Source: a virus (taxonomy: Duplodnaviria; Heunggongvirae; Uroviricota; Caudoviricetes). Taken from it: a stretch of DNA of 45,439 nucleotides. The stretch is taken from the IMG/VR virus record IMGVR_UViG_2872678658_000002; one strand, 5' to 3'. Shown here piece by piece: positions 28,048 through 44,641 of this stretch. The notes under the pieces were generated by a model. That model was not told the origin of the DNA, did no database searches, and was given only the letters and a program-made list of their open reading frames with translations. Made by a program: the position numbers and the translations under genes. How positions within the stretch are numbered: the first letter of the stretch is position 1; the number at the start of each line of letters is the position of its first letter.

Positions 28048-28725
28048 ATGTCCATCATTTTTAATGGACACTATCGTATGAAACACCGGACCTGGATCAC
28101 TGAAGCTTTACGTCTTCACTTTGAAGAACATTTACCCCGGGTTGTGGCCGGGCGTCGCCTGGGTGTACCAAAATCAACAGTTTGTAGTATGTTCGTGCGC
28201 TTTCGGAGAGCTGGCCTTTCGTGGCCTTTGCCCGCAGGCATGTCGGAGCAGGAACTTGATGCCTGCCTTTACGGACAATTTTCCACGGTACCAGTCGTAC
28301 GTCCTGAAAGCACCGTTATATCCGAAGCCCCCGTGGTAAAAAAACGTCCCCGGCGGCCCAACTTCCCTTATGAGTTTAAAATCGCCTTAGTGGAGCAGTC
28401 ACTGCAGCCCGGAGCCTGTGTGGCGCAGATCGCCCGGGAAAACGGAATCAACGATAACCTGCTCTTCAACTGGCGCCATCAATACCGGAAAGGTGGCCTG
28501 CTGCCTTCCGGAAAAAATATGCCGGCACTGCTTCCCGTGACGTTAACGCCGGAGCCGGATAATAAAATCCCGGCCCCCGCACAGGAACCAGAGCAGATAA
28601 ATACACCGTCCGACAGTCTGTGTTGTGAGCTGGTTCTGCCGGCCGGAACTCTCAGGCTTAAAGGTAAACTGACGCCGGCGTTATTACAGACACTTATCCG
28701 CGAAATAAAAGGGAGCAGCCACTGA
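28048..28725 (+). CDS. tnpA: IS66-family accessory protein TnpA (HTH)
   Basis: 225-aa ORF, HTH-like segments; first of three IS66-type ORFs. Confidence 0.7.
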   Translation: MSIIFNGHYRMKHRTWITEALRLHFEEHLPRVVAGRRLGVPKSTVCSMFVRFRRAGLSWPLPAGMSEQELDACLYGQFSTVPVVRPESTVISEAPVVKKRPRRPNFPYEFKIALVEQSLQPGACVAQIARENGINDNLLFNWRHQYRKGGLLPSGKNMPALLPVTLTPEPDNKIPAPAQEPEQINTPSDSLCCELVLPAGTLRLKGKLTPALLQTLIREIKGSSH

Positions 28726-29072
28726 TGATATCTCTCCCTGCAGGTTCGCGTATCTGGCTGGTTGCAGGTATCACCGATATGCGAAATGGCTTTAACGGCC
28801 TGGCATCAAAAGTTCAGAACGTCCTGAAGGATGACCCGTTCTCCGGACACCTGTTCATCTTCCGCGGACGCCGGGGTGACCAGATAAAAGTGTTGTGGGC
28901 TGACAGTGACGGACTGTGCCTCTTCACCAAACGCCTGGAGCGGGGCCGCTTCGTCTGGCCAGTCACCCGTGACGGCAAGGTGCACCTTACTCCGGCTCAG
29001 TTATCCATGCTTCTTGAAGGTATCAACTGGAAGCACCCGAAACGAACGGAACGCGCTGGAATCCGCATATAA
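28725..29072 (+). CDS. tnpB: IS66-family protein TnpB (orfB)
   Basis: 115 aa, typical IS66 orfB size and sequence, start overlapping tnpA stop. Confidence 0.85.
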   Translation: MISLPAGSRIWLVAGITDMRNGFNGLASKVQNVLKDDPFSGHLFIFRGRRGDQIKVLWADSDGLCLFTKRLERGRFVWPVTRDGKVHLTPAQLSMLLEGINWKHPKRTERAGIRI

Positions 29073-29091
29073 CCCGTTGTAAAGTGAGGAT

Positions 29092-30663
29092 ATGGACACC
29101 TCACTTGCTCATGAGAACGCCCGCCTGCGGGCACTGTTGCAGACGCAACAGGACACCATCCGCCAGATGGCTGAATACAACCGCCTGCTCTCACAGCGGG
29201 TGGCGGCTTATGCTTCCGAAATCAACCGGCTGAAGGCGCTGGTTGCGAAACTGCAACGTATGCAGTTCGGTAAAAGCTCAGAAAAACTTCGTGCAAAAAC
29301 CGAACGGCAGATACAGGAAGCACAGGAGCGAATCAGCGCACTTCAGGAAGAAATGGCGGAAACGCTGGGTGAGCAATATGACCCGGTACTGCCATCCGCC
29401 CTGCGCCAGTCTTCAGCCCGTAAACCGTTACCGGCCTCACTTCCCCGTGAAACCCGGGTTATCCGGCCGGAAGAGGAATGCTGTCCTGCCTGTGGTGGTG
29501 AACTCAGTTCTCTGGGATGTGATGTGTCAGAGCAACTGGAGCTTATCAGCAGCGCCTTTAAGGTTATCGAAACACAACGTCCGAAACAGGCCTGTTGCCG
29601 GTGCGACCATATCGTGCAGGCACCAGTACCTTCAAAACCCATTGCACGCAGTTATGCCGGAGCGGGGCTTCTGGCCCATGTTGTCACCGGGAAATATGCA
29701 GACCATCTGCCGTTATACCGCCAGTCAGAAATATACCGTCGTCAGGGAGTGGAGATGAGCCGCGCCACGCTGGGGCGCTGGACCAGTGCTGTTGCTGAAC
29801 TGCTGGAGCCGCTGTATGACGTCCTGCGCCAGTATGTGCTGATGCCCGGTAAAGTCCATGCTGATGATATCCCCGTCCCGGTCCAGGAGCCGGGCAGCGG
29901 TAAAACCCGGACAGCCCGGCTGTGGGTCTACGTCCGTGATGACCGTAACGCCGGTTCACAGATGCCCCCGGCGGTCTGGTTCGCGTACAGTCCGGACCGG
30001 AAGGGTATCCATCCTCAAAATCACCTGGCCGGTTACAGCGGTGTGCTTCAGGCCGATGCTTACGGTGGTTACCGGGCGTTATACGAATCCGGCAGAATAA
30101 CGGAAGCCGCGTGTATGGCTCATGCCCGGAGAAAAATCCACGATGTGCATGCAAGAGCGCCCACCTACATCACCACGGAAGCCCTGCAGCGTATCGGTGA
30201 ACTGTATGCCATCGAGGCAGAGGTCCGGGGCTGTTCAGCAGAACAGCGTCTGGCGGCAAGAAAAGCCAGAGCCGCGCCACTGATGCAGTCACTGTATGAC
30301 TGGATACAGCAACAGATGAAAACACTGTCGCGTCACTCAGATACGGCAAAAGCGTTCGCATACCTGCTGAAACAGTGGGATGCACTGAACGTGTACTGCA
30401 GTAATGGCTGGGTGGAAATCGACAACAACATCGCAGAGAACGCCTTACGGGGAGTGGCCGTAGGCCGGAAAAACTGGATGTTCGCGGGTTCCGACAGCGG
30501 TGGTGAACATGCGGCGGTGTTGTACTCGCTGATCGGCACATGCCGTCTGAACAATGTGGAGCCAGAAAAGTGGCTGCGTTACGTCATTGAACATATCCAG
30601 GACTGGCCGGCAAACCGGGTACGCGATCTGTTGCCCTGGAAAGTTGATCTGAGCTCTCAGTAA
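29092..30663 (+). CDS. tnpC: IS66-family transposase TnpC
   Basis: 523 aa, N-terminal coiled coil/leucine zipper, Cys-rich zinc ribbon, DDE-like core. Confidence 0.85.
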
Positions 30664-30924: not shown

Positions 30925-30999
<75 letters not shown>

Positions 31000-31002
31000 A
31001 TA

Positions 31003-31078
<76 letters not shown>

Positions 31079-31080
31079 AC

Positions 31081-31157
31081 TGGACCGCCACCGGGGACTC
31101 GAACCTCGCACACTCAACTTAAAGGGTTGACGCTCTTTCCTGATGAGCTAGTGGCGG
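31081..31157 (-). tRNA. tRNA-like gene with atypical anticodon loop CCUUUAA (anticodon UUU if canonical; C at position 33)
   Basis: foldable cloverleaf with 7-bp acceptor stem, D and T arms (T-loop UUCGAGU), abuts next tRNA with 1-nt spacer. Confidence 0.5.
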
Positions 31158-31158
31158 C

Positions 31159-31234
31159 TGGTGGCCCTTGCTGGATTTGAACCAGCGACCTGGCGATTAT
31201 GAGTCGCTCGCTCTCACCACTGAGCTAAAGGGCC
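31159..31234 (-). tRNA. tRNA-Ile2-like (anticodon CAU, ileX/ileZ type)
   Basis: 76 nt, anticodon loop ACUCAUAA; body far closer to remembered ileX than to elongator tRNA-Met. Confidence 0.75.
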
Positions 31235-34648: not shown

Positions 34649-34804
34649 TTACTCCTCAGGTTCGTAAGCTGTGAAGACAGCGACCTCCGTCTGGCCGGTT
34701 CGGATTCGTACCTCGCAGAGGTCTTTCCTCGTTACCAGTGCCGTCACAATGACGGTTAAACAGATGACGATCAGGGCGATTAACATCGCCTTTTGCTGCT
34801 TCAT
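34649..34804 (-). CDS. hok: Hok/Gef-family membrane toxin (HokD-like)
   Basis: 51 aa MKQQKAMLIALIVICLTVIVTALVTRKDLCEVRIRTGQTEVAVFTAYEPEE; ORF has in-frame upstream extension to 34861. Confidence 0.85.
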   Translation of the reverse strand: MKQQKAMLIALIVICLTVIVTALVTRKDLCEVRIRTGQTEVAVFTAYEPEE

Positions 34805-35040
34805 AGCCTGCTTCTCCTTGCCTTTCGGCACGTAAGAGGCTAACCTAGATTTGCCGTTCATAGATTGAGCCTCAGATTAATGTTAAGCGTCTTGCAGGAC
34901 GCGTAATGTTAACTGGGGCTTTTCTCTATCTGCCTTTGGTGTTCATGCCTGAGACAGATAGCCTCAAGCACCCGCAGCCATTCTACTTAACTCCCGTTAC
35001 CTCGCCAATATAAAATCAATCAGAAAGGTGATCCATAAAA

Positions 35041-35727
35041 TCACTCCTTCTCTTCTTTTCCGTAGTGGAGTTGGCCAATTTTGATAAGAGGGCGTCCCTG
35101 AGATTTGCGGTGTAGATTGGTATCGCGCAGAGAATACACACAGCCACAATATTCCTGCTGATAGAATTTTTCGCGCTTGCTGATTTCAATCATACGGGAC
35201 GAGCCGCCCTGCTTGCGCCAGTTATAATCCCAGTACACCATACCCGGATAATGCGCAACAGCTCGCCGCCCACACTCGTTAACCTGCTGCATATTTTTCC
35301 AGCGTGAAATGCCCAGTGAACTGCTGATCACACTGAAACCATTTTCAGCAGCGTACAACGCTGTCCGCTCAAAACGCATGTCAAAACACATGGTACAACG
35401 GATCCCCCTCTCAGGCTCCCATTCCATTCCTTTGGCACGTTCAAACCAGTTGTCGGTGTCGTAATCAGCATCGATAAACGGCACGCCGTGTTGTTCAGCA
35501 AAGCGAATATTTTCATCCTTACGAATTAAATACTCTTTCTGAGGATGAATGTTCGGGTTGTAGAAAAAGATGGTGTAGTCGATTCCCGAGGCCTGAAGCG
35601 CCTCCATCACTTCACCGGAACATGGAGCACAGCAAGAGTGCAGTAGTAGTTTGTTTGCCCCGTTTGGGAGCTCCAATTTAGGCCGTTTGAAATCAGCAAT
35701 AGTCATAAATATTTTTATTGGGGTCAT
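35041..35727 (-). CDS. DUF208/QueH-like protein (putative epoxyqueuosine reductase, Fe-S)
   Basis: 228 aa with [11 protein letters not shown] motif plus CTMCF and YCGC cysteines characteristic of QueH family. Confidence 0.65.
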
Positions 35728-38244: not shown

Positions 38245-38664
38245 ATGGTTCATGAAGATAAAGCGCGTAAAGAGTTCGCCAGTAGGCTTGCGCTAGCCTG
38301 TGAAAACGCTGGTTATGAACAACATGGAAGGCAGGCAGAAATTGCCCGTCGAATGAAATTAACACCAAAAGCGGTTAGCAAATGGTTTAATGGCGAAACA
38401 ATTCCTCGCCGGGAGAAATTAAGGGAATTAGCAACACTAATAGGAACAACACCAACCTATCTTTTGGGAGAGGATACAGAAGAAAGTGGACAGGTACGTT
38501 TCTATCAGGAGTTAAATCCAAGACAAAAAATCATCATTGACCTTCTGGACGAGCTCCCTGACAGTGAGACAGATGAACTTTTAAAAACTCTTGAAGAGAA
38601 AAAACAGAAGTACAATGCAATTTACGAAGAGTTAGCACGAAAGAAAAAACAAAAAGCCTCTTAA
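38245..38664 (+). CDS. CI-like prophage repressor (HTH_XRE)
   Basis: 139 aa; HTH (GRQAEIARRMKLTPKAVSKWFNG); divergently oriented to Cro-like gene. Confidence 0.7.
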   Translation: MVHEDKARKEFASRLALACENAGYEQHGRQAEIARRMKLTPKAVSKWFNGETIPRREKLRELATLIGTTPTYLLGEDTEESGQVRFYQELNPRQKIIIDLLDELPDSETDELLKTLEEKKQKYNAIYEELARKKKQKAS

Positions 38665-38734
38665 ACCAGCATAAATCCGGTAGCGCCTTCCTCCGGGTTT
38701 GTGCTTCACTTTATCCCATCTCATTTTTTTACAC

Positions 38735-38785
38735 ACAAAATGTACTAAAAGTACTTTACAACAATGAACGCAAAGTACATTATAT
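38735..38785 (+). promoter_or_regulatory. OL/pL-like operator-promoter candidate downstream of repressor
   Basis: ATGTACT (38740), palindromic AAGTACTT (38749) and AGTACAT (38774) share the heptamer seen in the OR-like region. Confidence 0.4.
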
Positions 38786-38965
38786 ACCTGCCACCCACCC
38801 CACCCCACAGAATGCAGGGCAATACTTCGAGTTACCAGGCAGTGGTCAGGGGTTAAGTAGCCAGCCCGAGGCGTAAGAACATGACGGCAGGGTTCAACTT
38901 TAATAACTATGCAGCAGGTTTTTGTTCCGCTACCCCGGCGTTAAGGGGAAACAGAGGATTTCTCA

Positions 38966-39322
38966 GTGGGCGAAGTCAAACATCAGAATGGAAGGCGTCC
39001 AGGGATCAGCAAAGAAACAGCGATGGCGCTTTATATTGATATCAGCGCCATTGCCGGACAGGTAAGAATTATCAGAGCGGTAACTAAGCGGTATGCGCCT
39101 TTACTTCAGAAAGTCTCTGGTGAGTGCACCGAAGATATTGTCAACGATTTCGTCATCAAACTGCGAGGACTCATCTTCAGTTACAAGGTGACCACAATTT
39201 TTGCAGATGGCTCCCGCGAAACTGTCAGAGCCCTGCGGTTTAAAGGATGTGTCAAAGACTTCGCCACCACATTCTGGGCAAGAAAACTTGATTGTATTCA
39301 TAACCAATTTCCTCTCGAGTAA
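38966..39322 (+). CDS. hypothetical protein (first ORF of early-left operon), antisense-overlapping a zinc-ribbon ORF
   Basis: GTG start with AGAGGA 7 nt upstream; same strand as repressor and dicB operon. Confidence 0.35.
   Translation: MGEVKHQNGRRPGISKETAMALYIDISAIAGQVRIIRAVTKRYAPLLQKVSGECTEDIVNDFVIKLRGLIFSYKVTTIFADGSRETVRALRFKGCVKDFATTFWARKLDCIHNQFPLE
39101..39301 (-). CDS. small zinc-ribbon protein (CPECG...CKNCG)
   Basis: 66 aa from ATG 39301 with GAGAGGA Shine-Dalgarno; two CxxC pairs 24 residues apart; acidic C-terminus. Confidence 0.45.
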   Translation of the reverse strand: MNTIKFSCPECGGEVFDTSFKPQGSDSFAGAICKNCGHLVTEDESSQFDDEIVDNIFGALTRDFLK

Positions 39323-39393: not shown

Positions 39394-39612
39394 ATGCAGA
39401 AACGAGAACCCGTCATCATCGCGCCAGACTATACCGATGATGAACTTTATGAGTGGATGCGCCAGAAAATTAATGCAGCGCAGGATCTGAAATGGGCCAA
39501 TGAAGCCAGGGCTAAGCAGGCTGAAAATCTGTCCGCTCTGGAGCAGGATATCACCAATCTGGAAAAAGCAGCGGCATTAAGCATTGCCAGAATGATTACA
39601 TACCCGCGTTAA
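39394..39612 (+). CDS. YdfC-like small protein
   Basis: 72 aa with strong AAGGAG RBS; same size and position as Qin ydfC upstream of dicF. Confidence 0.6.
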   Translation: MQKREPVIIAPDYTDDELYEWMRQKINAAQDLKWANEARAKQAENLSALEQDITNLEKAAALSIARMITYPR

Positions 39613-39952
39613 TAGCTAACCAACGAAGCTAAGGTTGGTAATTAAGGAGTTCTCCACGGGTGAGGTGGAGTGCGTGCGCCGGACACGGGTGAACATCCAG
39701 CACAGACAGTTTACTGAAAGGATATTTCCCTGAAAAGTCAGACCATAACGCGAAAGCGCACGGCGAGGTAGCTGGTTCATAGATAGCCTGTCGTTAAATT
39801 TTCGTCGACCGTGCGCTTCCGGTTGTGGCACTCCGCGAAATGGCGCGGCGGTAAGTATGGCGGGGTTATTCCTTCCCCGTTGAGGACACCGGGTTGTCAG
39901 GTTGACCATACGCTTAAGTGACAACCCCGCTGCAACGCCCTCTGTTATCAAT

Positions 39953-40010
39953 TTTCTGGTGACGTTTGGCGGTATCAGTTTTACTCCGTGACTGCTCTGC
40001 CGCCCTTTTT
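39953..40010 (+). ncRNA. dicF: DicF small RNA
   Basis: TTTCTGGTGACGTTTGGCGGTATCAGTTTTACTCCGTGACTGCTCTGCCGCCCTTTTT matches remembered DicF; lies in long ORF-free structured leader upstream of dicB. Confidence 0.85.
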
Positions 40011-40179
40011 AAAGTGAATTTTGTGATGTGGTGAATGCGGCTGAGCGCACGCGGAACAGTTAAAACCAAAAACAGTGTTATGGGTGGATTCTCTGTATCC
40101 GGCGTTAATTGTTAACTGGTTAACGTCACCTGGAGGCACCAGGCACCGCATCACAAAATTCATTGTTGAGGACGCGATA

Positions 40180-40368
40180 ATGGAAACGTTATTACCAAAC
40201 GTTAATACGTCTGAAGGTTGTTTTGAAATTGGTGTCACTATCAGTAACCCTGAATTTACTGAAGATGCCATTAACAAGAGAAAACACGAACGGGAGTTAT
40301 TAAATAAAATATGCATTGTTTCAATGCTGGCCCGTTTACGCCTGATGCAAAAAGGACGCTGGCAATGA
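40180..40368 (+). CDS. dicB: cell-division inhibitor DicB
   Basis: 62 aa METLLPNVNTSEGCFEIGVTISNPEFTEDAINKRKHERELLNKICIVSMLARLRLMQKGRWQ, near-identical to remembered DicB; GAGGA RBS. Confidence 0.85.
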   Translation: METLLPNVNTSEGCFEIGVTISNPEFTEDAINKRKHERELLNKICIVSMLARLRLMQKGRWQ

Positions 40369-40568
40369 ATACTGCTGTTGCCCTCACTCTGACTGTTTTT
40401 CTTAATACTGGCGAACCTGTTGATGTGGTTACTGGTATATATGGTTCAATGAAAGAATGTATGGCTGCCGCAGCAGAACAGAAAATTCCTGGTAACTGTT
40501 ATCCGGTCGAGAAAGTTATTCGCATGGATAATAACGAAATCCCGGCAGGATTAAAAACAGCGCCGTAA
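40365..40568 (+). CDS. YdfD-like small membrane protein
   Basis: 67 aa with N-terminal hydrophobic segment; immediately follows dicB as ydfD does in Qin. Confidence 0.55.
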   Translation: MNTAVALTLTVFLNTGEPVDVVTGIYGSMKECMAAAAEQKIPGNCYPVEKVIRMDNNEIPAGLKTAP

Positions 40569-40647: not shown

Positions 40648-43119
40648 ATGAGTAAAGTCTTTATTTGCGCCGCCATTCCGGACGAACAGGCAATAAAGGA
40701 AGAAGGTGCAGTTGCTGTAGCCACTGCCATTGAAGCCGGTGACAAACGCCGCGCCCGTGCCAAATTTACCTGGCAATTCCTGGAGCAATATCCGGCTGCT
40801 CAGGACTGCGCTTATAAATTTCTTGTCTGCGAGGATAAAACCGGCATGCCCCGCCCTGCTATAGACTCCTGGGATACCGAATATATGCAGGAAAACCGCT
40901 GGGATGAGGAATCCGCTTCCTTTATTCCGGTCGAACCAGAATCCGATCCGATGAACGTCAATTTTGACAAGCTGTCCCTTGAAGTACAGAACGCGGTTCT
41001 GGTTAAGTTCGGTACATGTGAAAACATCACCGTTGATATGGTGATTAGTGCTCAGGAATTACTGCAGGAGGACATGGCAACATTCGACGGGCATATCGTT
41101 GAGGCATTGATGAAAATGCCTGAAGTTAATGTCATGTATTCAGAGCTTAAGCTGCTCGCCATCGGGTGGGTTAAACATAAATGTAAGCCGGGTGCAAAAT
41201 GGCCTGAGATCCAGACAGAATTACGCACCTGGAAAAAACGTCGCGAAGCCGAACGCAAAGAAACCGGGAAATACACGTCTGTTGTTGATCTTGCCCGCGC
41301 CAGAGTCAACCGGCAGCACACTGAAAACTCAGCAGGAAAAATCAACCCCGCCACTGCCGCCATTCGTCGCGAATACAAGCAGACATGGAAAACGCTGGAT
41401 GAAGAACTGGCCTACGCTCTGTGGCCTGGTGATATTAATGCCGGAAACATTGACGGCAGCATCCATCGCTGGGCAAAAAATGAAGTTATCGACAAAGATC
41501 GCGAAGACTGGAAGCGTATCTCGGCATCAATGCGCAAACAGCCTGATGCCCTTCGCTACGACCGCCAGACTATTTTTGGCCTTGTCCGTGAACGTCCGAT
41601 CGACATTCACAAAGACCCTGTGGCACTGAACAAATACATTACTGAATACCTGACTACAAAGGGCGTGTTTGAAGATGAAGGAAGAAATCAGAGCACAACT
41701 GATACTCTCTCGTCGCCAGTACCAGAAACTGATGCAGTGGAAACGGCAATTCCGGACAACGAAAAAACCGAATGCCAAGTGGAAGTCGAACCATCTGTAG
41801 AGCGTGAGGGGCCGTTCTACTTCCTCTTCACCGACAAGGATGGCGAAAAATACGGTCGCGCAAACAAACTTTCTGGTCTGGATAAGGCACTGGCTGCCGG
41901 GGCTACTGAAATCACGAAAGAAGAATATTTCGCCCGCAAAAACGGTACATACTCAGGTTCACAACAAAATACTGGTACATCTGACACGACCGCACAACCA
42001 GGGCCGGTAAAAGTTACCGCTGACGAAGTAAACAAAATTATGCAGGCAGCCAATATCAGCCAGCCTGACGCCGATGAACTGCTTGCAGTATCACGTGGTG
42101 AATTTGTTGCAGGGATTAGCGATCCGAATGATCCGAAATGGGTGAAGGGGATTGAAACCCGCGATTCTGTGAACCAGAACCAGCAAAAAACGGAACAGAA
42201 CGACCAGAAAGCGGAACAAAACAGCCCAAATACGCAACAAAACGAGCCAGAAACGAAACAACCTGAACCAGTAGTGCAACAGGAACCGGAAAAGATCTGC
42301 ACCGCCTGCGGTCAGAGCGGTTGCGGCAACTGCCCTGATTGTGGCGCGGTGATGGGCGACGCAACATACCAGGAAACATTCGATGAAGAGAATCAGGTTG
42401 AAGTTCAGGAAAATGATCCGGAGGAAATGGAAGGCGCTGAACATCCACACAAGGAGAACACTGGCGGCAATCAGCATCACGATAGCGATAATGAAACTGG
42501 CGAGGCGGCAGATCACTCAATTAAGGTGAACGGTCATCACGAAATCACATCCACCAGCAGAACGTGTGACCATCTAATGATCGACCTCGAAACCATGGGA
42601 AAAAATCCTGATGCCCCGATTATCTCAATAGGTGCAATATTTTTCGATCCGCAAACCGGAGATATGGGACCGGAATTTAGTAAGACTATCGATCTGGAAA
42701 CTGCTGGCGGAGTCATTGATCGGGACACCATTAAATGGTGGCTGAAGCAATCACGCGAAGCGCAATCTGCCATTATGACCGATGAAATCCCGTTAGATGA
42801 TGCACTGTTACAATTGCGAGAATTTATCGACGAAAACTCCGGTGAATTTTTTGTTCAGGTCTGGGGAAATGGAGCCAACTTCGACAACACGATTTTGCGC
42901 CGTTCATACGAACGGCAGGGGATCCCCTGCCCGTGGCGTTACTACAACGATCGCGATGTACGCACAATCGTTGAGCTGGGGAAAGCCATAGACTTCGATG
43001 CCAGAACGGCTATTCCATTCGAAGGTGAGCGCCATAATGCACTTGATGACGCCCGTTACCAAGCAAAATACGTTTCAGCTATCTGGCAAAAACTGATCCC
43101 GAGTCAGGCTGATTTTTAA
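40648..43119 (+). CDS. multidomain exonuclease (YdfE-like; C-terminal DnaQ-like DEDDh 3-prime-5-prime exonuclease)
   Basis: 823 aa; Q/N-rich linker, CTACGQSGCGNCPDCG zinc ribbon, C-terminal DLETMG...NGANFD...HNALDD exonuclease motifs. Confidence 0.7.
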   Translation: MSKVFICAAIPDEQAIKEEGAVAVATAIEAGDKRRARAKFTWQFLEQYPAAQDCAYKFLVCEDKTGMPRPAIDSWDTEYMQENRWDEESASFIPVEPESDPMNVNFDKLSLEVQNAVLVKFGTCENITVDMVISAQELLQEDMATFDGHIVEALMKMPEVNVMYSELKLLAIGWVKHKCKPGAKWPEIQTELRTWKKRREAERKETGKYTSVVDLARARVNRQHTENSAGKINPATAAIRREYKQTWKTLDEELAYALWPGDINAGNIDGSIHRWAKNEVIDKDREDWKRISASMRKQPDALRYDRQTIFGLVRERPIDIHKDPVALNKYITEYLTTKGVFEDEGRNQSTTDTLSSPVPETDAVETAIPDNEKTECQVEVEPSVEREGPFYFLFTDKDGEKYGRANKLSGLDKALAAGATEITKEEYFARKNGTYSGSQQNTGTSDTTAQPGPVKVTADEVNKIMQAANISQPDADELLAVSRGEFVAGISDPNDPKWVKGIETRDSVNQNQQKTEQNDQKAEQNSPNTQQNEPETKQPEPVVQQEPEKICTACGQSGCGNCPDCGAVMGDATYQETFDEENQVEVQENDPEEMEGAEHPHKENTGGNQHHDSDNETGEAADHSIKVNGHHEITSTSRTCDHLMIDLETMGKNPDAPIISIGAIFFDPQTGDMGPEFSKTIDLETAGGVIDRDTIKWWLKQSREAQSAIMTDEIPLDDALLQLREFIDENSGEFFVQVWGNGANFDNTILRRSYERQGIPCPWRYYNDRDVRTIVELGKAIDFDARTAIPFEGERHNALDDARYQAKYVSAIWQKLIPSQADF

Positions 43120-43381: not shown

Positions 43382-44406
43382 TGGGAAGACGAAGGAAAAA
43401 TCCTGAACACGAAAAATTACCTCCAAATGTATACCCAAATAAATATAGTTATGTATGGAAACCAACATCCAGAGAATCTGTAACACTAACCGCCATCAAG
43501 GATGGTTTAGCTGCTTTATGGAAAAAGTATGAGGAAACTGTAAATAATCGCGATCGTGCAATGACATTCGGTCGCTTGTGGGAAAAATTCCTCGCCAGCG
43601 CCTATTACAGTGACCTCAGTCCAAGAACACAAAAAGATTATCTGCAACATCAAAAAAAGTTGCTTGCCGTATTCGGTAAGGTGCCGGCAGATTCCATAAA
43701 ACCAGAACACATCCGTCGATACATGGACAAGAGAGGGGAACAGAGTAAAACGCAAGCCAACCATGAAAAAAGCAGTATGTCCCGCGTTTACAGTTGGGGG
43801 TATGAGCGAGGGTACGTGAAAGCTAACCCATGTGCAGGTGTAAGTAAATTCAAGGCCAAAAACCGCGAACGATATGTAACCGACAAAGAATACCAGGCAG
43901 TATTAAGCGTTGCACCTCTTCCTGTTTTTATCGCAATGGAAATTGCCTATCTGTGTGCAGCGAGGGTTTCCGATGTGTTATCGCTGAAATGGGAGCAGAT
44001 TGGAAACGACGGGATCTTTATCCAGCAAGGGAAAACAGGAAAAAAACAGATAAAAGCATGGAGTCCACGATTACAGGCGGCGATCGAAAAAGCAAAACAG
44101 TTACCAACATCCGCCTATGTAATCAGCAATCAATACGGCAACCGATATATGTACAAAGGCTTTAACGAAATGTGGGTAGATGCAAGAAATCGTGCTGGAA
44201 AAATTTCAGGTATTTTAACCGACTTCACCTTTCATGATCTGAAGGCGAAAGGAATTTCAGACTATGAAGGAAGCAGCCGGGATAAGCAACTTTTCTCTGG
44301 TCACAAAACCGAAGGGCAAGTGCTAATCTATGACAGGAAGGTTAAAGTTTCACCAACACTTGATGTCCCGTTACCTGAAAATATTCCAAGAAAATATTCC
44401 AAGTAA
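43381..44406 (+). CDS. int: tyrosine integrase
   Basis: 341 aa; C-terminal catalytic region (R...HDLK...VLIYDRK with Tyr); adjacent to tRNA 3-prime end. Confidence 0.85.
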   Translation: MGRRRKNPEHEKLPPNVYPNKYSYVWKPTSRESVTLTAIKDGLAALWKKYEETVNNRDRAMTFGRLWEKFLASAYYSDLSPRTQKDYLQHQKKLLAVFGKVPADSIKPEHIRRYMDKRGEQSKTQANHEKSSMSRVYSWGYERGYVKANPCAGVSKFKAKNRERYVTDKEYQAVLSVAPLPVFIAMEIAYLCAARVSDVLSLKWEQIGNDGIFIQQGKTGKKQIKAWSPRLQAAIEKAKQLPTSAYVISNQYGNRYMYKGFNEMWVDARNRAGKISGILTDFTFHDLKAKGISDYEGSSRDKQLFSGHKTEGQVLIYDRKVKVSPTLDVPLPENIPRKYSK

Positions 44407-44458
44407 TTCCAAGTGTGATTTTTGTCACTGACTTAATGATGTGTAAGTGATTGAATTT

Positions 44459-44548
44459 TGGCGGAGAGAGGGGGATTTGAACCCCCGGTGGAGTTGCCCC
44501 CACTCCGGTTTTCGAGACCGGTCCGTTCAGCCGCTCCGGCATCTCTCC
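44459..44548 (-). tRNA. serU: tRNA-Ser (anticodon CGA), integration target
   Basis: 90-nt cloverleaf with long variable arm, anticodon loop CUCGAAA; 3-prime end faces integrase. Confidence 0.85.
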
Positions 44549-44641
44549 GTTCAGATGGTTGCCATGATGCCAGGAAATTTGGCATTTTAACAGTCCCTGT
44601 CCGTGCAATTTTGTTCAAGTGACGAGTTTGCGAGCAAAACG

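Follow-up and report, generated by a model that had tools for sequence, protein, structure and literature searches.

The dicBF operon and its genes

The cassette of ydfC, dicF, dicB and ydfD is located on the plus strand (39394-40568) of a 45,439-nucleotide (nt) stretch of DNA from a Caudoviricetes virus (IMG/VR record IMGVR_UViG_2872678658_000002), which in its full length is called the window in the following. A sequence-only reading had proposed that all four parts are present, and each of them is found by Rfam, by Pfam or by its identity to the Escherichia coli K-12 copy. The region is an ordinary and apparently functional segment of the early-left (PL-type) operon of a lambdoid prophage of the Qin/Tritos type. 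Its leader between ydfC and the small RNA (sRNA) DicF contains an element of about 115 nt (39822-39936) which is, as judged by covariation in its aligned homologues, a discrete structured RNA.

The ydfC gene (39394-39612, plus strand) encodes 72 residues, all of which are identical to K-12 YdfC (72/72). The protein is annotated as WP_001171942.1 in the strains DE17 and 13P477T and in K-12, and it did not match any Pfam family in the scan of the window's proteins. DicF follows as an RNA of 53 nt (39953-40005, plus strand), which extends to 40010 if its intrinsic terminator with the U-tract is included. The Rfam covariance model RF00039 matches 39954-40005 on the plus strand with 76.7 bits (gathering threshold 48) over model positions 1-52 of 52, and all 52 of these positions are identical to K-12 (52/52). 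DicF thus lies between ydfC and dicB with its U-tract directly at the 3' side, and both the hairpin upstream of it and the AU-rich linker have been kept with respect to K-12. The cell-division inhibitor gene dicB (40180-40368, plus strand) encodes 62 residues and matches PF05358 with 132.6 bits (cut-off 27) over positions 1-62 of 62. DicF and DicB had been called recognisable almost verbatim, and DicB is identical to the K-12 protein at 57/62 residues (92%).

The start codon of the ydfD-type gene (DUF1482; 40365-40568, plus strand; 67 residues) overlaps the stop codon of dicB in the sequence ATGA. Its product matches PF07358 (DUF1482) with 70.2 bits (cut-off 25) and has four additional C-terminal residues compared to K-12 YdfD. 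Because only 42/63 residues (67%) are identical to the K-12 protein, lysis activity of this variant is not assured. The next gene of the operon (40648-43119, plus strand) encodes an exonuclease of 823 residues with an Rv2179c-like 3'-5' exoribonuclease domain (Pfam, 227 bits). It has its full length in the window, while the copy of the K-12 Qin prophage is annotated as incomplete and abuts IS2. The gene order is therefore ydfC, the leader, DicF, dicB, ydfD, the exonuclease, a DUF4224 gene at the position of the Tritos excisionase, and int. The alignment to K-12 Qin that the sequence-only reading had proposed as a check is colinear from ydfC onward (93.4% identity, no indels) and upholds the homology of DicF and DicB. 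Concerning the identity and anatomy of the cassette, there is hardly any room for doubt.

The spacer between DicF and dicB (40006-40179, plus strand), which comprises the dicB 5' untranslated region (UTR), is 99.4% identical to K-12 and resembles STnc100. The full Rfam model RF02076 (STnc100) matches 40003-40212 on the plus strand with 38.7 bits, which is below the gathering score of 47. In pPE4, mEp460, Tritos, and two Stx phages the same sub-threshold match is found 3' of the DicF-type terminator. STnc100 could be nothing other than the 5' UTR of dicB/kil in prophages of this kind.

The leader between ydfC and DicF

The 340-nt leader (39613-39952) is real and has the same length as in K-12. 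It had been described as free of open reading frames (ORFs), GC-rich, and structured, and these attributes fared differently. The first is approximately correct for the plus strand, which contains just a 32-residue and a 36-residue ORF, both without an ATG start codon; the minus strand contains a TTG-initiated ORF of 111 residues, which is not conserved. A high GC content is an overstatement because the leader as a whole has 53.1% compared to 51.8% in the window, and the 3' 133 nt alone are elevated (57.9%). The structured nature is supported by covariation, as described below, while the folding energies are unremarkable with z-scores of -2.0, -1.0, and -0.75. The published RNase III and RNase E species (PMC10448788) support the assignment of the leader to the processed dicBF transcript. 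Searches with the leader alone revealed it to be a mosaic of two modules. Rfam models did not match within 39613-39952 at E-values of up to 10, and the only matches were DicF and the sub-threshold STnc100 further downstream.

In the 5' half of the leader a long hairpin is formed by AAGCGCACGGCGA ... UCGACCGUGCGCUU (39754-39818, plus strand; 13 base pairs with one bulge), which is predicted in the minimum free energy (MFE) as well as in the centroid fold. Between the window, mEp460, and phiSTEC1589-Stx1c the two strands of the stem do not differ, whereas the loop varies. About 190 nt separate the 3' end of the hairpin from that of DicF, in agreement with the published RNase III product (PMC10448788). 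Judged from this length only, the hairpin is probably the RNase III substrate that generates the 5' end of the 190-nt DicF.

A pseudoknotted four-way junction upstream of DicF

The structured element (39822-39936, plus strand) corresponds to the 5' domain of the 190-nt "long DicF" and is predicted to fold into a four-way junction with a pseudoknot. The junction is closed by helix P1 of eight base pairs (39822-29/39929-36). Helix P2 consists of the five base pairs CCGCG/CGCGG (39833-37/39844-48), and helix P3a of the three base pairs GGU/ACC (39850-52/39888-90), beyond which the variable hairpin P3b is located (39862-65/39875-78). Helix P4 has nine base pairs (39891-99/39919-27) and carries an invariant loop of 19 nt. 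The pseudoknot connects the internal loop of P3 to the loop of P4 through six bases on each side (GUAUGG at 39855-60 with CCAUAC at 39906-11). All helices are read on the plus strand.

This fold is supported by two alignments. Alignment A2, which was generated from 19 representatives with MAFFT and thus without knowledge of the structure, has 94.4% of its cells paired, and in slid registers this value drops to 34-56%. Eight pairs have changed on both sides compared to 2.0 in shuffled alignments (reached in 0/500). RNAalifold independently recovers P1 to P4, and the MFE prediction for the single sequence results in the identical junction. Alignment A3 contains sequences from six more genera; it was fitted to the model and therefore leans toward the structure, with 95.3% paired cells and 14 pairs changed on both sides compared to 4.8. 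The genera of the broader alignment include Citrobacter, Trabulsiella, Serratia, Erwinia, and Izhakiella. In Izhakiella P4 is rebuilt by three compensatory changes, in phage P1 a U-A pair of the pseudoknot has become C-G (GCAUGG with CCAUGC), and in many variants P3b is rebuilt from unrelated sequences. In addition, the unpaired nucleotides of the junction and the loops are nearly invariant across genera. The frequent G-U pairs, whose counterparts on the opposite strand would be A-C mismatches, assign the fold to the plus strand, the sense strand of the operon. The covariance model R1, whose effective sequence number is 1.54, assigns 156 bits to the element of the window.

Two other readings of the element were discarded. 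A boxA-like interpretation of the P4 loop (CGCUUAA) was rejected because the positions vary without a pattern. A tRNA-like interpretation was dismissed because the RNA scans of the window gave no tRNA-like match in the element and the pseudoknot is not a pair of D-loop and T-loop.

The 9-mer GUUGAGGAC is found twice on the plus strand, at the junction of P3 and P4 (39879-39887) and in the ribosome-binding region of dicB (40165-40173). In most variants pyrimidines predominate in the P3b loop (UCCUU-like). Both observations could be due to chance or could hint at a cross-talk with dicB translation.

Distribution of the cassette and the element

The cassette as such is already known. DicF, DicB, and YdfD have been characterised, and the operon has been deposited as part of viable phages. 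Of 5426 complete E. coli genomes, 4764 contain it, the median being two copies, and it is also found in 61 phage records. Phage Tritos encodes CI and Cro in the lengths and order of the window, followed by ydfABC, an annotated DicF, dicB, ydfD, exo, xis, and int, and mEp460 is another phage with this context. In 2016 no phage matches had been found among about 2000 phage genomes (PMC5069750), so that the idea of a phage context was open at that time, which it no longer is. The proposal that the window reveals the likely ancestral context of the cassette is therefore overstated and not new, and the phage records update the 2016 remark that dicBF is absent from phages. The 254-kb record of Aeromonas phage AP1 (MT713136.1) contains a stretch of 247 nt that is 98% identical to the DicF region of E. 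coli, which is probably a contamination or mis-binning and does not indicate a true host range.

The element is found in 4417/5426 E. coli genomes (81%) with a median of two and up to eight copies, and it is never annotated there. It is also present in about 500 P1-like plasmids, in the ban leader of P1 and P7 (94 bits with R1), in cdtI and Stx2c phages, in phage 2H10, in Salmonella phage F1055, and in a phage labelled Actinobacillus pPE4. Further copies are encoded in the genomes of Citrobacter, Trabulsiella, Serratia symbiotica, Erwinia, and Izhakiella. Metagenome-assembled genomes labelled Bacillota, Veillonella, and Collinsella contain copies that score with R1 like those of E. coli or P1; these too are probably contaminations or mis-binned sequences and not evidence for a true host range. 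A full-text search of the available literature with 14-nt strings of the element did not return any match, although older dicF papers may already describe a conserved block upstream of the sRNA. The element is thus an unannotated and under-explored part, absent from Rfam, of an otherwise known operon.

Promoter, transcription, and processing

A PL-type early-left promoter was identified by a promoter scan at 38755-38783 on the plus strand (TTTACA-17-CATTAT, with flanking operators), just 3' of the gene for a DicA/CI-type repressor (38245-38664, HTH_3). The 61 nt at 38723-38784 match the PL/operator region of HK022 at about 50/61 positions, as counted by eye. This promoter is likely the start of the transcript that carries the cassette. 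Within 38723-39100 (plus strand) the similarity to HK022 stops at the -10/start site, and the place of putL is taken by about 310 nt of unrelated non-coding sequence. Between PL and ydfC, a gene for a zinc-ribbon protein of the ECs_2282 family (68 residues, 39101-39307, minus strand) is oriented antisense in the presumed PL transcript and fills the place that ydfA and ydfB have in Qin and Tritos. At a similar place, mEp460 and pPE4 have an annotated small ORF in reverse orientation.

ManYZ is a phage receptor that is inhibited by DicB. In K-12, RNase III cleavage results in the 190-nt DicF species and RNase E cleavage in the 53-nt species, the DicF terminator works so that terminated transcripts and DicF accumulate, and the stability of the upstream mRNA is altered in rnc and rne mutants (PMC10448788). 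DicF represses ftsZ, xylR, and pykA by Hfq-dependent base pairing, and DicB causes a division block that depends on MinC/ZipA (PMC5069750). PMC6832061 names an inhibition of inner-membrane phage-receptor proteins by DicB in its title. The functions that had been attributed to DicF and DicB from the sequence agree with PMC5069750 and with the title of PMC6832061.

The following steps are drawn from the published work on the identical K-12 sequences. Loss of the DicA/CI-type repressor would allow transcription to begin at PL. The leader would be cut by RNase III to yield the 190-nt RNA, and a following cut by RNase E would free the 53-nt DicF. The DicF hairpin would double as an intrinsic terminator, and dicB and ydfD would therefore be reached by read-through transcripts only. 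The same presumably applies to the exonuclease and int. DicF would then repress ftsZ, xylR, and pykA, a prediction for the window based on the identity of its DicF to the K-12 RNA, and DicB would block cell division and inhibit phage receptors. We consider the explanation as a whole, including this mechanism, to be probably correct, with less confidence than in the identity and anatomy of the cassette because the mechanism is only inferred.

A possible role in read-through of the terminator

In all distinct variants (22/22) the element is followed by a strong hairpin with a U-run, from which it is separated by a variable spacer of 12 to about 60 nt. In Qin-type phages this terminator is DicF; the hairpins of the remaining variants differ from it in their loops and lack the DicF seed. 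In phage P1 the element begins about 43 nt past the -10 box of the C1-controlled promoter Pban and is followed by the terminator, tRNA genes, and ban. In cdtI the cI terminator is followed by a strong PL, about 285 nt of sequence, the element, the terminator, and the first gene, and therefore every PL gene is located beyond that terminator. In the window and Tritos, the genes beyond the terminator are dicB, ydfD, exo, and int, together with xis in Tritos and the DUF4224 gene in the window. The terminator directly behind the element thus controls access to early genes that are either toxic (dicB, ydfD) or essential (exo, xis, int, ban).

In cdtI/Stx2c-type phages the PL transcript opens with a non-coding leader of about 590 nt (cdtI, L005, 1657-2310). 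In cdtI a long inverted repeat, ACAAAACAGAGAAGAGCAUC ... UUCUUCUCUGUUUUGU, is located after the element and the terminator and before the first gene, and looks like an RNase III-type hairpin.

In the element-bearing phages that were examined, P1, cdtI, Tritos, mEp460, Qin, and the window among them, the interval from the repressor gene to the element does not contain an N gene. Two Stx phages that do encode N, phiSTEC1589-Stx1c and 75/02 Stx, have kept the flanks and the DicF-type terminator and are devoid of the element. In phiSTEC1589-Stx1c (L147, about 1690-1710) the core of the element is cleanly missing between the 5' strand of the P1 helix and the 3' strand of P4, while the RNase III-type hairpin and the DicF-like terminator are both retained. 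Model R1 does not detect an element in 75/02 Stx, which encodes an unannotated N-like ORF with the arginine-rich motif SRRRAHRAELQ (L150, 1992-2336).

These surroundings suggest that the element might act in cis to promote read-through of the DicF-type terminator by PL transcripts, and we put this function forward tentatively, as a possibility that falls short of being probable. The element would act on the transcribing polymerase, or via a host factor, and would let PL transcripts pass the terminator, thereby taking the role that N/nut or HK022 put have in other lambdoid phages. The more general proposal would be an undescribed class of phage cis-regulatory RNAs, namely an RNA-only or host-factor-dependent antiterminator of the early-left transcripts of N-less lambdoid phages and of the ban transcripts of P1 and P7. 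DicF itself would then have started as a side product of the terminator, and its recruitment as an sRNA would have come later. For the time being this general proposal is rather unlikely to hold in full.

Several observations weigh against a role in read-through. The element has no sequence or architectural likeness to put, and R1 does not match anything in the put-containing regions of HK022 and of HK639, the latter with an annotated putL. There is one copy per phage and no partner at the PR side (97/97 loci and the window). In Qin-type phages the element is about 1 kb away from PL and not adjacent to the promoter. Because the DicF terminator works in K-12 and DicF accumulates (PMC10448788), any antitermination could only be partial. 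The association with the absence of N comprises about eight versus two phages, which are phylogenetically not independent. The diversity of the sample, which is shallow as the effective sequence number given above indicates, is limited because all sequences were gathered by patterns demanding two exact conserved stretches. Finally, the folding energy of the element is unexceptional (z = -1.0).

If read-through control is true, put would no longer be the only family of phage RNA antiterminators, and the element would represent the second one. The expression of the early-left operon in N-less lambdoid phages would then be explained, and the element would provide a handle on the timing of DicF and DicB. 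If the element is merely a processing scaffold, it would still explain the stable 190-nt "long DicF" and merit an entry in Rfam.

Alternative explanations

Such a scaffold would be a biogenesis or stability domain of DicF-type sRNAs, which sets the RNase III and RNase E sites, protects the 190-nt precursor or the 3' end of the upstream mRNA from exonucleases, and does not affect transcription. The element indeed corresponds in position to the 5' portion of the stable 190-nt RNA, flanked by the inferred RNase III cleavage site and by that of RNase E, a DicF-like terminator hairpin always accompanies it, and rnc and rne mutants are changed in the stability of the upstream mRNA (PMC10448788). However, the N-encoding Stx phages have DicF-type hairpins without the element, which is therefore not needed for making such an RNA. 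Furthermore, the near-invariance of the unpaired nucleotides across genera exceeds what a generic protective fold would need, and the sequences downstream of the element in P1 and cdtI contain little or no DicF seed. Altogether, an exclusive role in biogenesis is doubtful.

The element could also be the sensor of a conditional attenuator, either a riboswitch or the binding site of a host or phage factor that decides on the formation of the terminator. Its size, the four-way junction with pseudoknot, the invariant junction, the variable peripheral hairpin, and the nearby terminator represent the usual anatomy of a transcriptional riboswitch, and in cdtI a PL-encoded protein is not possible before the terminator has been passed. 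A sensor of this kind would be expected to compete with the terminator, but the 5' strand of the terminator does not show a conserved alternative pairing with the element. Across 20 variants the RNAduplex z-scores are about 0 and the best sites differ, so that a riboswitch-type pairing does not exceed the shuffled controls and was rejected. The string GGCGGUA, which is common to the element and most terminators, was rejected as well because it does not covary (GGUGG/CCACC in L032; unrelated in P1). In addition, the length of the spacer varies (12 to about 60 nt), the downstream genes (kil/dicB, recombination, tRNAs, ban) do not point to any metabolite, and Rfam riboswitch models did not match within 39613-39952 at E-values of up to 10. 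A conditional attenuator is thus improbable. Other roles, for example as a trans-acting domain of the 190-nt RNA, are a further alternative. We therefore keep read-through of the terminator as the tentative assignment of the element.

State of the prophage

A further rival reading takes the cassette to be an inert relic of a decaying cryptic prophage, without expression or function. The window is 99.9% identical to a prophage of the avian-pathogenic strains DE17 and IMT5155, which is integrated beside tRNA-Ser and mtfA. It contains a DicA/CI-type repressor, Cro, YdaT, a replisome organiser, hokD/sok, DUF968, RusA, and Q, as well as four tRNAs, lysis genes, terminase, head and tail genes, J, Lom, and a tail fibre. 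By the DE17 annotation the set of modules for immunity, replication, Q, lysis, packaging, head, and tail is thus complete. Isolated phages, among them PhiR49_1, Perceval, and 2G7b, match 81-85% of the virion half at 95-96% identity. Of the early region, 74% are covered by the induced phages 689R5 and 606R7 at 96-97.6% identity, and 62% by Tritos at 93.8%.

The prophage had been called apparently intact. The presence of all modules and the similarity of the virion half to isolated phages are in agreement with this description, but three features indicate that it is overstated. ISCro1, an element of the IS66 family with tnpA, tnpB, and transposase, is inserted at 28048-30663 between the Q/tRNA cluster and the holin gene. 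In the DE17 prophage (99.9% identical) the annotation marks the integrase gene as frameshifted; the 341-residue ORF of the window retains the catalytic domain and, by reading of the sequence, likely also the catalytic tyrosine. Lastly, no exact direct att repeat of at least 12 nt was found to be shared by the tRNA-Ser end (44381-44620) and the first 4 kb, although a shorter core would escape such a search. While these same three features would suit a relic, the four cassette genes are intact, with DicF and YdfC identical to the functional K-12 copies, the exonuclease that is truncated in K-12 has its full length, and a PL-type promoter and a repressor gene are present. It is therefore very hard to believe that the cassette is inert.

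ISCro1 is located in the leader of the late operon in opposite orientation. The annotation of DE17 assigns the four tRNA genes (30928-31234, minus strand) to Ile, Lys, Thr, and Gly. In addition, the gene at 35041-35727 (minus strand) is annotated as encoding the tRNA modification enzyme epoxyqueuosine reductase QueH, and its combination with the tRNAs is unusual for a lambdoid early region. The sok antitoxin RNA (RF01794, 110 bits; 34799-34973, minus strand) is located beside hokD as in Qin.

Finally, the chance that the leader is protein-coding, by way of the 111-residue minus-strand ORF at 39616-39951, is negligible: although the frame is open through the whole leader and a part of it has been called by PGAP as a 54-residue hypothetical protein in strain 13P477T (WP_021522780.1), the ORF is not annotated in DE17 and K-12, starts with TTG, and shows substitutions that compensate plus-strand RNA helices, and its coding potential was rejected because the segment has 131, 133, 134, 135, 136, 137 or 138 nt among 65 distinct homologues (16 of them at +1) and the frame of the window is stop-free in just 38/65.

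Comparison with known systems

One of the closest known systems is the dicBF operon of K-12 Qin (ydfABC-dicF-dicB-ydfDE), whose leader has the same length and also contains the RNase III-type hairpin and the RNase E linker. In contrast to Qin, ydfA and ydfB are replaced in the window by a non-coding stretch and the antisense zinc-ribbon gene of the ECs_2282 family. The repressor of the window is another helix-turn-helix (HTH) protein with HK022-like PL operators, and the exonuclease, the DUF4224 gene at the position of xis, and int are present, all of which have been destroyed by IS2 in Qin. Phage Tritos (OV696610.1) shares the operon with the annotated DicF, the lengths and order of CI and Cro, and the continuation into exo, xis, and int. 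It differs in having retained ydfA and ydfB, while the window contains another, lambda-like virion module (PhiR49_1 and Perceval, 96%) and ISCro1. Phages related to Tritos that have been isolated or induced are mEp460, vB_EcoS-689R5, PhiR42_1, and PPompW.

The put RNAs (putL and putR of HK022, putL of HK639) are cis-acting antiterminators that bind the zinc-binding domain of the RNA polymerase beta' subunit and consist of two stem-loops with conserved bulges. Like put, the element is located in an early operon behind a repressor-controlled promoter, in phages without N and with terminators downstream. Both are structured RNAs of roughly 70-125 nt with conserved unpaired bases, and the PL of the window is homologous to that of HK022. 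RNase III is said to cut next to putL, as Sloan et al. 2007 reportedly described. However, there is no detectable homology, the element forms a four-way junction with a pseudoknot instead of two stem-loops, and it is present as a single copy without a site at the PR side. A string UCAGG(A/U)UGA, which was spotted by eye as shared with put, is not backed by any model and was discarded. The element is not a member of the put family.

A functional analogue of the element could be the eps-associated RNA (EAR) of the Bacillales, reportedly described by Irnov and Winkler 2010 as a processive antiterminator RNA of about 120 nt with a pseudoknot, which is said to lie inside the operon between genes. 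The element is similar in size, also has a pseudoknot, and is also located within the operon rather than close to the promoter, but its sequence, host, and operon are unrelated.

The leader of the ban operon of phage P1 contains a "dicF-like region" (NC_005856, 68791-68892; annotation by Lobocka), which covers only the 3' half of the element and the terminator. The element of P1 and P7 has kept the helices P1 to P4 and the pseudoknot with compensatory changes. The Rfam DicF model does not match the "dicF-like region", and the terminator there is not DicF. Phage P1 and Qin therefore have in common the structured element and not the sRNA.

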